A stretch of DNA of 64,000 nt from Felis catus (taxonomy: Eukaryota). This document shows positions 40,576 to 52,275 of this stretch, in pieces (the stretch's first letter is position 1; each line of letters begins with the position of its first letter). Made by a program: the position numbers and the translations under genes. Under the pieces are notes generated by a model. That model was not told the origin of the DNA, did not search any database, and worked only from the letters and a program-made list of their open reading frames with translations. The stretch covers positions 38,812,001-38,876,000 of the forward strand of contig NC_058381.1 of NCBI RefSeq assembly GCF_018350175.1, written 5' to 3'.

Positions 40576-42932
40576 AAATTACCATTTTAAACACTGTTTC
40601 ATAGGAAGACTGTTAACATACCCCAAAATGTTAACAGTGGTTATATTAGAGAAAGAAGGGGAGATCGCCTTCAACTTTGAGGAATATTTGAAATGCTTTA
40701 CAAGCATATATTTCTTTTACTTTTAATTACCTTGTCTTAAAAATATTAAAGAGAAAAGCCTCAAGATGAGAGAAGAGCAGTCTCCTCCTACACTTCCAGC
40801 ACATCTCAGGCCCACACCTCCCGGCTTAAACTCCTTTAGTAACCTGCTAGTTTCCAAAGATGTGTCAGAATCTCTTATCTGCTGCCTTGTTCTCTTTATC
40901 ATTGTGGGTTTACATCTTTTCTAGTACTTTATTTAGTGAGATTTCAAGGCGAGAAAATTAATATGATCAATCTGCCACTCTTAGAAAAGTCCATGCATAT
41001 AATGTAGGCTGATTTGGGGGCATTATCATGAAGGGAGTGGGATCTATCAAAGAAAAGTCAGCTGTTTGTTATAAAGACATTGTTCTAGTGACTGGGGGTG
41101 CAGGGGGAGAGGATGGTCTGGGAGGGGAGCATCCAGATGGTTCAAGAGCTAACATAGTTAGGAAGACACTAAGATAGGCTTCTCACCCAGCTGCAGCAGG
41201 ACAGAGACAGCAACACGGAGGGCACAGAGAAATCTTGCATCAGGGTCACAGCCCACATCGTGGGGCTGCTCACCCCAGTTCTGCTCCAGGACAGACTCCA
41301 CCTAGAAGGAAACACACCAGACTATAAAAGCTAGGAACAAGGAAACATACCAGAAATGGCAAATATTTCACCACACTTCTTAATCCTGGGCCATGGCAGA
41401 TGTAATAATCCATAATGGCACTTTTTCCTGCGGGGCCTGGAGAGCCCCATTCTTTCTCAACACAGTGACAGGCACTGCTAATCAGAGTTGGCACTGCCAT
41501 CCTGAGACTAACAGTTTTCCACCCCCCTCTCTTACCCATAGGCTAGCAACAGAGCCTATTAAGCCCGAGTTGTCCTGGAAACCATGTGTTCCAGGGAATT
41601 GCCACAAACCAGCTGAATGGATGTAAACTGACAGAGAACTACGAAGTAGGAAGGACTGTACCCTGGGACTTCTGAGTCCCTTGAGAACACAGGCATTCAC
41701 TTCTACTATGACTCTAGCCCTCAGTCCAGGGTGTCTTATCTGGTCTTTCAACAGGGACAGGATCCCCTTTTCCAGGGCCTCAGCCACAAGATGCTGCTCC
41801 TAAGATATCTCTGGGGGCAAAAAAGAGGGTCAAGAGGGTTGCTGGCAGAGAGGGACAGGGCTTCAGTATTTCATCAGACCTGGGACAAACATCAGAAAGA
41901 GGTTCCAGAGAGCCCCTGGCAATGATAGATGAGAGTTATTCCAAATGGGCTCTTGTGGTGAATCTTTCTTCCCTCTTAGCTTGCAGGAGGTCAGACTTGC
42001 CAGGCGGGTAGAGGAGGCATCCCCCAACCCCTGGCCTGGGGAAAATGACTAGTTCCTAAAGTGTGAAAGTCTATCCTTCATGAAATGTAAAAGGCAATGT
42101 ATGTCACCTTCCTCCCAGGATTTGAACCCCCACAGACCCCTTTGCTCCACAATTCCTCTACACCAGCATACTTCCAAATCCCTTCTCACCAATCAAGGCA
42201 TCCAGGACATTCAGAATAGATTCTGTATGTGTTTTTACCAAGATCCCAGCAGCATTAAAAAGCATTAAAAAGGCTACTTACAAGAGGATCTGCTGGACCC
42301 TCCAGGTCACCAGAGATCAGGGCCTCAGACACCGAGGGCCAGGAGATGGGGGAGATGAGTGCCAGTCCCACTATAGCAGACTGTCTTCAGTACGGTAACT
42401 GCCCTTCCTGCTGGTTCCTCCCTCTCTCTGCTCCAATTCTTTCCTGGGTCCCTTACTCTTTATTCTAGATTCTGTCACTGCTCCTCCTTGTTGAAGTGCT
42501 TAGTGAGGCAGCTTAGCACAGTCTATCAGATCCTAGAGGCCTCTCAGCATGTCCTGCACCTTCTCCTTCATGTTTCTGAAGTCCTCCAAACTCAAGGATT
42601 TCCCTGTAGAGGCAGCAGTTAAGAACCCGACCTACCCAGCCAACAAGCTCCATTATTACCAAGGCCTCTGTCAACCCCATTCTTCATGAAACCACTTCTC
42701 TATTGCTTCCCTTCTAATCTTTTCCAGTTCAAGTAAAGCACCCTTCTTCCCAGATACCCATCATCATTGCCTCCTGCCAACCTCACCTTCACCTTCCCAG
42801 CTCAACCCCAGTTGAGTACCAATCCCAAATTCTTTTCCACCTCCAATAAATCAAAACTTACTTAGTCCTTGCCATTCAAAGTGCAGTCTCTGGACCACAC
42901 TAGTAGTAGTGAGGATTTAGACAAAGTTAGAG

Positions 42933-43104
42933 CAGTGGTTCTCAACTTTGTGCATAAGAATTACCTGGGGAGTGATTAAAAATCCTGATGCCCAGGCCAC
43001 ATCCCCAGATAACTTAAATCAGAATTTCTGGAGTTGGGACTCAGGTATCACTAGTTTTAAAGTTCCCCCAGGTGATGTCTACATATAATCAATGAGAACC
43101 ACTG
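42933..43104. mobile_element. MER5A-like MITE with terminal inverted repeats
   Basis: TIRs cagtggttctca ... tgagaaccactg. Confidence 0.8.
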
Positions 43105-48964: not shown

Positions 48965-49385
48965 GTGCTAACTTTACAGTAGAGAAACTTGACAAACACC
49001 ACCTCAGCCAGGTGACCAAGGTCAACATTAACAGTGATAAGTCATGTTGATAGCACATACCCTTGATATGATGCAGTGAGAATAGTACCTTACCTCAATG
49101 GTCTTCCTCTCCAAAACCCATTACTTCAGTCTAACCATGAGGAAAAAAAGTCAAGCAAATGCCAATAGACAAGCATCCTATAATATGCCTGACCAGTACT
49201 CGTCAAAACTGTCAAGATCATCAAAAATAAGGAAAGTCTGAGAAACTGTCAGAGCCAAGAAAAGCCTCAGGAGATACAACAACTAAAGGTAATGTGGTAT
49301 CCTGAATGAGATCTTGGAACAGAGAAAGGATATTAGGTAAGAACCAAGATAATCAGAATAAAGTATATGGACTTTAGTTAATGGA
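48965..49385 (+). mobile_element. Ancient L1 (L1MC/MB-like) 3' fragment
   Basis: Homologous to 12880-13330. Confidence 0.65.
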
Positions 49386-52275
49386 AAACAAAACAAAACA
49401 AAACAAAAACCTATGCCACCTTAACCACATCATCAGCACCATATAATTAAAAAATAATCAATTTGAGAAGGAAGCAGGCCAAGTTGCTAAAAATCAATTC
49501 AAATTACCCATCCACTTCATTCTTAAGGATTTTTTTCAAAGTTTGGTTTCACCTCTGTCCCTGATTTGTTTATGCAAACAGACTGACTTTCCCTTAAAGG
49601 AAGTGAACTTGTCAATTTTTTTTCTGTACTTAACGCCTTTCCCCCTGTCCCTGGGGAGTAATATCATGGCAAAACACCATAGTCCTAGTCTAAAGTTTTT
49701 TTCTGTTTTCAGTGAACTGGTCATCTGGCAAACTGGTTTTTGGAGACTAGCTTTTAGTAAATTGGCTCTTAGCAATTTACTTTTCAGAGAATTGACTCAG
49801 TCTTTGAAAAATGATCATCTGAAATTTTCCTGAAGCCCCTTGCTCACTTAATGAAACCACTTGTAGAAAGGCCCAAGTAATCTGGACGCTGCTCTTGGTC
49901 ACATAACGGCTATGCCTGGCACATAGCAGGTGCTCTAAAACTATACAGTGGTACTGTTTGCATTCTTTTCTTAATGAGATCCAGATGGGCTGTAGCAAAG
50001 ATGTCTGAGCTGTAAAAGTCCTTACCCTGAAGTCTGAGACACCGAAATAAGTCTCCAGGTGAGGGTTCAGCAACATTTACCCTGGTGCTTCTGCAACCCA
50101 AAAGTCTGAGTTTGGAGGCAGGGGAATGGAATAGACTCCTCTAGAAATCCCTCAAGCCTTTAGGGAGTTCTGCTCACCCATCCAGTCTGATCTCCAAGGG
50201 ACACGAGGGATAACAGCCGCCAGCAGAATGATGGGGCTGAACTTTGACTGAATGCTCCTTCTGCACAACCACTGTCATAAATGACCTAATTTATATCATT
50301 TGAGTCTTGTAAGATTCTTGTCAAGTTGACAGCTGAGGAAACAGACTTAGAGAGAGAGAAGGCAACTTGTCCAGAGGCCGCCCAGGTGAGTGGCAGAGCC
50401 AGGCTTAGAAACGAGGTGCCCTCAGCTCTTAGGCCTGTGTCCTTTCCTAACCACTAAGCAAACTGCCTCCGTTTATTTATCCATCTAACTGATAAACATA
50501 CAAACACATCAAAAGACCTTAGCTAACTTAAAAGTGAATTATTTACAAAAAGAAAACATGGGAAAGGAAGACAATTTAGGAATAATTTTCAATAAAAATA
50601 AATTTTCACTTACCCTGTTCTTTCTCCCCATGCAGCTCTTCTGTGCATTTTTTTTTCAAGTTTTCATTTAAATTCCAGTTAACATCTTTTGTGCATTTCT
50701 TAAACTGAGGTGTGTGGACATATGCAAACAAATTCTAGTACATACAAGTTCTTTGTTGACTGGCTGACGTGGCTGATGGCAATGGGGAGTTGACAGTGTG
50801 GTAGAGCAGGAGTGGGTGAAGTCTCCTGGCTGGCCATCTCTTACCCCCTCGTACTGACCTTGGAGCCCAGAATCCAGCTTATCAAACAGCACTTCATCCT
50901 TCTCTCTCTCCACTATGTCCTCTAGGGTGAGGTCTGTCCTGTGGTACTGGCATCTCCGGAAATTTCTCCTCCCACTCACCAAAGAGAAGCAGTGAAATCT
51001 GTCAGAGTCAAGGATGCTTCTGACAGCAATCATATCCCCTCCAGCTCCATCTCTTGGACCACAACTCGTGATTTCCTCAAATAGGCTGGACATTGTGCCT
51101 GGACCAACTGGAGACAAAGAAGCCAGTTTCAGTTTGGGGAAGGGAGATATTGGTTCAGGTTTTTAAATCTCCCTTTGGCAGCCTGGGGTCAATGAAGATC
51201 CAAAGGTTCTAGAACAATCAGGACTTGGAATTATTTGACTTCCCTGTTGAACCCTTCTGGAAAAAAGATGGAACAGTGTTTATCCCAAAAGGAAAGTAAG
51301 AGTGAGGTCTGTTTTCTCCCACAGCAGAGTTGCCCCTTTGCTCAGAAGGGCCTGAGGGGTAGGGAGGCAGGCCCACCATCTTCCAGCCAGACCCCCACAG
51401 TGTTGATGAACAGAGGACCCAGGAAAAGATAAGAGGCATGGCTGCCAGACCTCACATTACCAACCCCCATGATTACTTCTTCCCTTGGCTCTGACTCCTG
51501 GGCCTCCCTCCCTTGCTGTGTTCTGCAAGGTAGTGGGATGGGTACTCCTACCAACCATTTCCCAATGAGATAGTGATAACTCTGCCTCAGAAGAAAACGA
51601 AAGAGAAAAGATGGAATGCAAGAGTGGCTTGGGGGTAGGTGCCCTGGATAGCCCTCCACCCCCCCGTCCTGTCTCACCAGTTACTGGTCACCATCTGAAA
51701 GGTCCCCTTACTCTTGGAAAAATAAAATGAATCCCAAAACTCTACCTGGGGCCTCTCCCCCACCCACTTTCCTCTTCACCCTCTCCTGGTCTACAGTTGG
51801 CCCCTGTACCCCCACCCCCCAGCTCCCCTGCAGGACCCTCCATAGGCTCATTACCAAATCCAACCTGATACAGCCGGTCCTTCCCTTTTCCTACTGAGCA
51901 GCAGCTCTTTGTCCCCACCACACCAGACCCTTCCCGCACTCTTACCTCCAAATCCTTCTCCCTCTCCCCTTCCATCAATCACTCTGCAACTCCTTCCTCT
52001 TGAGATGTTTCCCTTTCTTCAGGCTCCTCTGTTTTCCTCCTGGGGCCAGGACTCCCCTCACAAGCCTTCTGGTCTCCACTTCCCTATCCTACATCTGGCT
52101 ACCTTCCCCTAAGTCCCTTCTGGCTGGCCCAGGCATCTGCTCCCCCATGCTCCCTTCTCCTTCCCTGCCCCCATCATGGTGGCCAGCTCTCAGCTCAGTC
52201 TCAGCCTGGGAATTCTTCTGGCTGCCTGGAAAGGCAGTGCCCAGGGCCCACAGGCCTATCTTGGGGGCCACTCAC

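Follow-up and report, generated by a model that had tools for sequence, protein, structure and literature searches.

The window analysed here is a stretch of 64,000 nucleotides (nt) from the domestic cat (Felis catus, assembly GCF_018350175.1, contig NC_058381.1, positions 38,812,001 to 38,876,000). It contains the remnant of the gasdermin gene GSDMB on the minus strand at 41158..51093, flanked by ZPBP2 and ORMDL3. Felid GSDMB is almost certainly a pseudogene. Only one GSDMB copy was found in this genome, and nine of its ten coding exons are broken by frameshifts, stop codons and missing splice sites; we hold with high confidence that it has likely decayed free of selection from about the time when Carnivora arose. 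A preliminary description of this stretch had proposed a unitary pseudogene rather than assembly noise. This agrees with the confirmed lesions, with searches in which no second copy was found, and with sequencing reads and other cat species. The same description placed the loss in this felid. The gene is dead here, but its state is not peculiar to this felid, being common to Lynx and Panthera and likely to caniforms as well.

Disruption of felid GSDMB

The remnant was assigned to GSDMB by similarity and by position. Exon 2, the first coding exon, matched human GSDMB with an E-value of 1e-18 and GSDME/GSDMA3 with E > 0.004, which identifies a GSDMB orthologue. The exon 2 protein was 97% identical to the Lynx models and 95% identical to lion. 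The gene keeps its conserved place: ZPBP2 and ORMDL3 flank it, and a GSDMA-like gene follows after a further 37 kb. The stretch 41158-51093 contains zero N letters.

Lesions were called by frameshift-aware alignment of the intact GSDMB proteins of horse (P0015) and rhinoceros (P0027) to each exon, followed by a check of the exon borders (Table 1). Altogether, 6 frame-changing indels, 5 in-frame stops, 3 altered splice dinucleotides and 1 deleted donor were counted. The start codon was intact. The two frameshifts of exon 2 lie about 25 nt apart, so that the frame is restored and residues ~9-17, the first helix, are scrambled. The exon 4 remnant ends in intron-4 sequence (46072-46028), which closes at a cryptic GT. 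Here a deletion over the exon 4/intron 4 border took away the last 11 codons of exon 4 together with its donor and the first part of intron 4. Its size was set at 42 nt because the block from LYLVTE to intron 4 comprised 41 residues in 4/4 non-carnivore read-through models (camel, elephant and two bats) and 27 in lion and lynx. At the position of the exon 5 stop, Arg was found in 68/94 full-size proteins, 16 of them not matched by the pattern, and the TGA may have arisen from CGA by a CpG-type change. In exon 8, the lysine that corresponds to human K244 is retained. Exons 8-10, in which the C-terminal regulatory domain is not in frame, held 4 stops, 2 frameshifts and 2 splice changes.

Table 1. 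Exons of the felid GSDMB remnant and its neighbouring genes, with window positions.
Feature	Position	Strand	Lesions or state
GSDMB exon 2, first coding exon, 235 nt	50859..51093	-	-2 nt (~51069) and -1 nt (~51044)
GSDMB exon 3, 171 nt	47842..48012	-	-1 nt near 47872-47868
GSDMB exon 4 remnant	46028..46212	-	stop TGA 46207-46205; +1 nt near 46172-46166; 42-nt deletion near 46073
GSDMB exon 5	45424..45508	-	TGA at 45463-45461
GSDMB exon 6, 39 nt	44994..45032	-	donor GA
GSDMB exon 7, 24 nt	43296..43319	-	-3 nt (one codon fewer than in horse and rhinoceros)
GSDMB exon 8	42457..42603	-	TAG 42535-42533; net -14 nt near 42523; TGA 42477-42475; TAA 42462-42460
GSDMB exon 9	42190..42332	-	acceptor CG; -6 nt; 10-nt tandem duplication 42251-42270
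GSDMB exon 10	41740..41810	-	TAG 41802-41800; donor AT
GSDMB exon 11	41158..41301	-	open frame to natural stop; one copy in genome
ZPBP2	14953..22328	+	open frame of 326 amino acids; 8 exons; GT-AG introns; synteny and quality control
ORMDL3	55582..57182	-	open frame of 153 amino acids; 3 coding exons; GT-AG introns; synteny and quality control

The preliminary description had listed 13 lesions, and alignment and border check recovered 13/13 in the sequence. These were the 1-nt deletion of exon 3, the first stop of the spliced frame in exon 4, the +1 shift and the lost 3' homology of exon 4 (now recognised as the 42-nt deletion), the exon 5 stop, the exon 6 donor, the three stops and the 14-nt deletion of exon 8, the acceptor and duplication of exon 9, and the stop and donor of exon 10. 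Five lesions came in addition, namely the -2 nt and -1 nt of exon 2, the 42-nt deletion as such, the -3 nt of exon 7 and the -6 nt of exon 9.

When the exons were joined as they stand, the frame ended after 137 amino acids. The natural stop was reached by 0/256 exon-skipping routes from exon 2 to exon 11, an enumeration restricted to the regular splice sites with cryptic sites outside it. The longest route gave 215 amino acids and was out of frame after exon 3. An open frame with the complete N-terminal pore domain (exons 2-6) was not found, as the stop falls after 137 amino acids and exons 4, 5 and 6 are broken.

Age of the lesions within cats

Other carnivores were sampled as predicted protein models, obtained with three protein searches and one cluster look-up. 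GSDMB models of 134-395 amino acids were present in nine species of four families: Lynx canadensis, Lynx pardinus, lion, wolf/dog, golden jackal, red fox, raccoon dog, giant panda and northern elephant seal. The scrambled exon 2 peptide was identical in the two Lynx species (P0002 and P0003) and the lion (P0004) and was not seen in the seal, canid or panda models. At the exon 3 deletion, the L. pardinus and lion models read identical shifted frames. Both share the exon 4 deletion, and the +1 nt of exon 4 was also present in lion. L. pardinus showed the exon 9 duplication and read through the AT donor of exon 10. Since these lesions are common to Lynx and lion, decay predates the Felinae-Pantherinae split. 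A loss older than the cat radiation is very strongly indicated, in accordance with the old loss that had been proposed. Lion and window differed in 10/204 GSDMB codons, about 5% of amino acids, and seal and dog differed by 21-28%. From 5 stops in 381 codons and 3 changes in 34 splice bases, decay was estimated at 0.09-0.13 substitutions per site (95% interval 0.02-0.30).

Breadth across Carnivora and timing of the loss

None of the models from the nine carnivore species contained the exon 5 motif or a whole GSDMB, and every one skipped exons 5-7. Models of horse, rhinoceros, bats, pig and cattle comprised ~415 amino acids with both Pfam domains. For other carnivore families, the searches returned no GSDMB model; these genes may be annotated as pseudogenes or may have been missed. 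In the dog model P0010, the reading of exon 8 is out of frame and yields RPLGSD, which agrees exactly with the window across the first TAG of this exon. In frame, RPLGSD permits only TAG, TCG, TGG or TTG at this site, and a Gln codon would yield Pro. Among other proteins matched by pattern, the position held Q, K, H or M in 44/44. The dog thus probably carries the same first exon 8 stop as the felid. The seal model exits exon 8 four codons ahead of the site.

Intron read-through peptides in the models served as a neutral yardstick for exon residues, a proxy rather than a codon model, with a pool that omits elephant as well as the fox, raccoon dog and panda exons. Exon differences from dog and seal amounted to 116/489, compared with 56/235 for intron peptides (dog, fox and seal), giving a ratio of 0.99 (0.73-1.38). 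For the outgroups, 238/752 in exons (horse and Rhinolophus) compared with 113/261 in intron peptides (horse, camel and bat) gave 0.67 (0.54-0.84). Purifying selection on exons 2 and 3 was sought with the same yardstick and not seen, with 37/131 against 39/156 for dog and 29/132 against 13/57 for seal. Dating from the protein tree was dropped, as the caniform rows were partial and internal support was 31-72 at several nodes.

Based on these comparisons, a loss at or near the root of Carnivora is considered fairly probable. We lean slightly towards the fuller reading that GSDMB died once at this root (possibly in Ferae), that cats, dogs, bears, seals and ferrets all have a functional granzyme A but are natural GSDMB knock-outs, and that the 'gasdermin-B' annotations of dog and seal are artefacts. 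Several observations weigh against a single root loss. The caniform evidence consists of predicted proteins only, which patch over breaks. Of the felid lesions readable in caniform models, most are not shared: the exon 2 pair and the exon 3 deletion are missing from caniforms; the +1 nt of exon 4 and the exon 9 duplication are absent in seal, the 14-nt deletion of exon 8 is absent in fox and the exon 10 stop is absent in seal and canids. At the exon 4/intron 4 border, 22 nt are missing in the seal compared with 42 nt in felids, which may be a separate event. The shared exon 8 stop is a single transition, for which we estimate a recurrence of roughly 1 in 10. Exons 2 and 3 are open in the seal and dog models, and GSDMB appears among the transcripts induced in a study of dog cells (PMC11638162). 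The yardstick was built on local frameshift-tolerant alignments and short peptides, counts the felid branch repeatedly and has an interval that overlaps that of the outgroups.

Alternatively, GSDMB may have been lost after Feliformia and Caniformia diverged, in one event on the feliform or felid stem and in at least one other among caniforms. The caniform models are free of six or more of the felid lesions and show breaks of their own, for example the early end of exon 11 in canids, the missing start Met and exon 2 frame change in the panda-like P0142 and P0152, and further breaks in the seal. Repeated loss of GSDMB in mammals (PMC10948149) is also in line with this history. We nevertheless regard separate losses as rather unlikely, in view of the first exon 8 stop probably common to dog, the equal divergence of exons and introns on both the cat-dog and the cat-seal path, and the skipping of exons 5-7 in all carnivore models.

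A single, more ancient loss before carnivores and pangolins (Ferae) diverged was judged improbable. Pangolins do have a Gsdmb pseudogene (PMC10277264), and the Carnivora stem branch in the protein tree is long, at 0.13 compared with 0.14 for the terminal branch of horse. However, the listed pangolin lesions match no felid lesion in kind and place, and pangolin Gsdmb has no start codon where the felid one is intact. The published pangolin table was screened for a lesion in common with the felid gene, and none was found; exons 6-8 are given there as 'not found', which places the exon 8 stop outside the comparison.

Very little probability was assigned to a residual role of the locus, as a short N-terminal protein of about 137 amino acids or as a non-coding RNA. 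About 127-137 codons are open from the ATG in felid, dog and seal, the two exon 2 frameshifts compensate each other and transcription of the dog locus has been reported (PMC11638162). Against such a role, exons 2 and 3 were no more conserved than introns in either dog or seal, the first helix is scrambled in felids and the panda-like models have no start. Moreover, protein models exist only for species with a long open frame, so the sample is biased.

Outside Carnivora, the GSDMB models of whale, porpoise and narwhal (P0099, P0121 and P0123) comprised 360-386 amino acids and looked patched, hinting at a further loss in cetaceans.

Read support and search for a second copy

The base-by-base read check covered the stretch of exons 8-11 (40880-42650). 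Two public runs from different studies, X4 and X12, each covered it with a single contig that differed from the window by 3 substitutions, all away from the lesions, and by no indel. Both runs differ from the window and from each other, and their contigs carry the exon 8-11 lesions. For the stretch of exons 3-5, all sampled words were present in 14/24 listed runs, of which 9, from 5 studies, were not marked as a possible source of the window. Runs with small word shares (X18-X21) were kept out of the evidence. X4 and X12 are flagged as a possible source of the window DNA, though with 3 differences each. Base-by-base support is limited to exons 8-11, with exons 3-5 covered by sampled words. The RNA runs X20 and X22 gave 0 records over exons 8-11 and the 3' flank, X22 being read at ~1 in 100 and with no control gene.

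A second GSDMB copy was not found in genome searches with the horse protein, PF04598, PF17708 and exon 11 DNA, which score best candidates only and depend on an assembly that may be incomplete. PF04598 gave 19 matches at six loci, PF17708 gave 12 matches at four loci and exon 11 DNA gave 1 match. The other five gasdermin loci are, judging by position, probably GSDMA, GSDMC, GSDMD, GSDME and pejvakin. Although such searches could overlook an intact copy elsewhere, a dead duplicate or assembly errors are practically negligible as explanations, because other runs and other cat species carry the lesions, no second copy was found, the neighbouring genes are clean and the position between ZPBP2 and ORMDL3 near a GSDMA-like gene is conserved.

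A second match resembling a gasdermin first exon was located at C46:71817188-71817322 (+), ~21 kb behind the point at which the adjacent gasdermin gene begins. It is possibly a partial duplicate.

Granzyme A and the probably closed pyroptosis route

GZMA (contig C1, locus L015) was reached via a glutathione peroxidase search; a geminin family search gave one locus and no lead. The gene was intact, with 5 exons, GT-AG introns and an open frame of 261 amino acids, and its best PDB match was granzyme A. It carries the motifs AAHC, DLKLL and GDSGS. The preliminary description had the GZMA-GSDMB axis as a whole lost. This held for the substrate GSDMB, but not for GZMA itself.

The membrane-inserting strands of gasdermin B are encoded in exons III-V and its first helix in exon II (PMC8742441). 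Exon 6 is required for GSDMB pores, and granzyme A acts as a dimer that docks on the C-terminal domain by an exosite before it cuts at Lys244 (PMC13305819, PMC13631336). A product of 137 amino acids would be without half of the membrane-inserting strands, the exon 6 segment and the whole C-terminal domain. Early stops upstream of exon junctions trigger nonsense-mediated decay. The GSDMB transcript would be an expected target, because its stop lies upstream of most junctions. Since GZMA is intact and no full-length GSDMB frame is present, the route from GZMA to GSDMB pyroptosis would be closed at the substrate. Killer cells would likely keep granzyme A for other substrates. The repeated losses among mammals appear to be explained better by redundancy with other gasdermins than by a cause specific to carnivores.

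Two further observations were made around GZMA. Compared with human granzyme A, the felid protein shows a two-residue gap in the loop after PHSRPYMVLL (L015:3196-3334, +). An isolated IIGG-like stretch followed by stops at L014:2431 (+), ~8 kb upstream of GZMA, is possibly the remnant of a granzyme pseudogene.

Neighbouring genes and other features of the window

The neighbours of GSDMB had been described as flawless. This was true of the open frames and canonical introns of ORMDL3 and ZPBP2, but the tail of ZPBP2 may be slightly short. The name ORMDL3 for the neighbour of 153 amino acids is assumed from the family sequence. ZPBP2 ends at TAA 22326-22328, and the frame beyond (22326-22361, +) reads TSNKKS*YED*. 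This resembles what we take to be the longer human tail, and felid ZPBP2 may be about 11 residues short. A weak Rfam tRNA match (31.9 bits) at 19303-19375 (-), inside a ZPBP2 intron, is likely the head of a tRNA-derived SINE. Short open stretches at 2430-3481, 24617-24955 and 32805-33161 resemble decayed ORF2 pieces of what is presumably LINE-1.

Significance and comparison with known systems

The analysis contributes an annotation correction and a testable claim of order-wide GSDMB loss with GZMA retained. Human GSDMB matters in cancer immunotherapy, asthma and infection, fields in which cats, dogs and ferrets serve as models; like mice, these animals would lack the route. If a single root loss is true, the killer-cell pyroptosis route joins the cell-death genes shed early by Carnivora. 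Work that interprets GSDMB transcripts in dogs as a sign of pyroptosis (PMC11638162), or that reasons from cleavage sites (PMC7876337), would need correction. With GZMA intact beside a long-dead GSDMB, the lineage offers a natural test of whether the GSDMB-binding exosite decays after its substrate has disappeared; such decay is reported for mouse GZMA (PMC13631336). The surprise to specialists should be modest, because GSDMB is known as an often lost gene.

Loss of GSDMB has been published for rodents and pangolins (pangolins: PMC10277264), and numerous mammals are reported to have lost it, with carnivores not named in the available part of that report (PMC10948149). Repeated loss is a known event, and Carnivora is a clade for which only a partial report was found. 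In one comparable published case, GZMA likewise persists in the absence of GSDMB; it is a separate event, and carnivores go unmentioned in the main text of that paper. A literature search returned no paper calling felid or carnivore GSDMB a pseudogene; most subscription journals were outside it, and the status tables of NCBI, Ensembl or TOGA may already record the loss. Cui and Zhang 2021 (PMC7876337) described GSDMB of cat, tiger and dog as 'deficient in cleavage sites'. That study deals with the same gene and species group and reaches the same conclusion of impaired GSDMB pyroptosis, but treats the annotated proteins as real and lists 'mutation'. In reality the disruption affects the entire gene, and the cleavage-site argument is therefore moot. 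Dog GSDMB was likewise treated as a working pyroptosis gene (PMC11638162). Among inflammasome genes, Carnivora losses comprise a caspase-1/4 hybrid, NAIP/NLRC4, NLRP1 and AIM2 (PMC8411117), and such losses are also covered in PMC11121540, without GSDMB in the part available. The losses in PMC8411117 likewise concern lytic cell-death genes in the same order; GSDMB, which is unmentioned in its available text, acts downstream of killer-cell granzyme A.

Human GSDMB (PDB 8EFP, 8GTN and others) and the horse and rhinoceros genes occupy the orthologous position with ten coding exons, and so does the felid remnant, which shares 70-72% amino-acid identity with horse and rhinoceros over 376 aligned codons. 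Unlike them, the felid locus has no open frame, and neither the pore-forming nor the regulatory domain can be encoded. The pangolin study PMC10277264 is taken to be that of Pinto et al. 2023. Pangolin Gsdmb has no start codon, a 2-nt deletion at position 133 of E1, stops at E1 175 and E2 147, a 5-nt deletion at E3 10 and a 1-nt deletion at E9 93, and its exons 6-8 were not found (PMC10277264). Like the felid gene, it represents a unitary loss with many lesions, in the sister order. The lesions differ in kind and place: the pangolin gene is without several exons, whereas the felid gene retains remnants of all ten.

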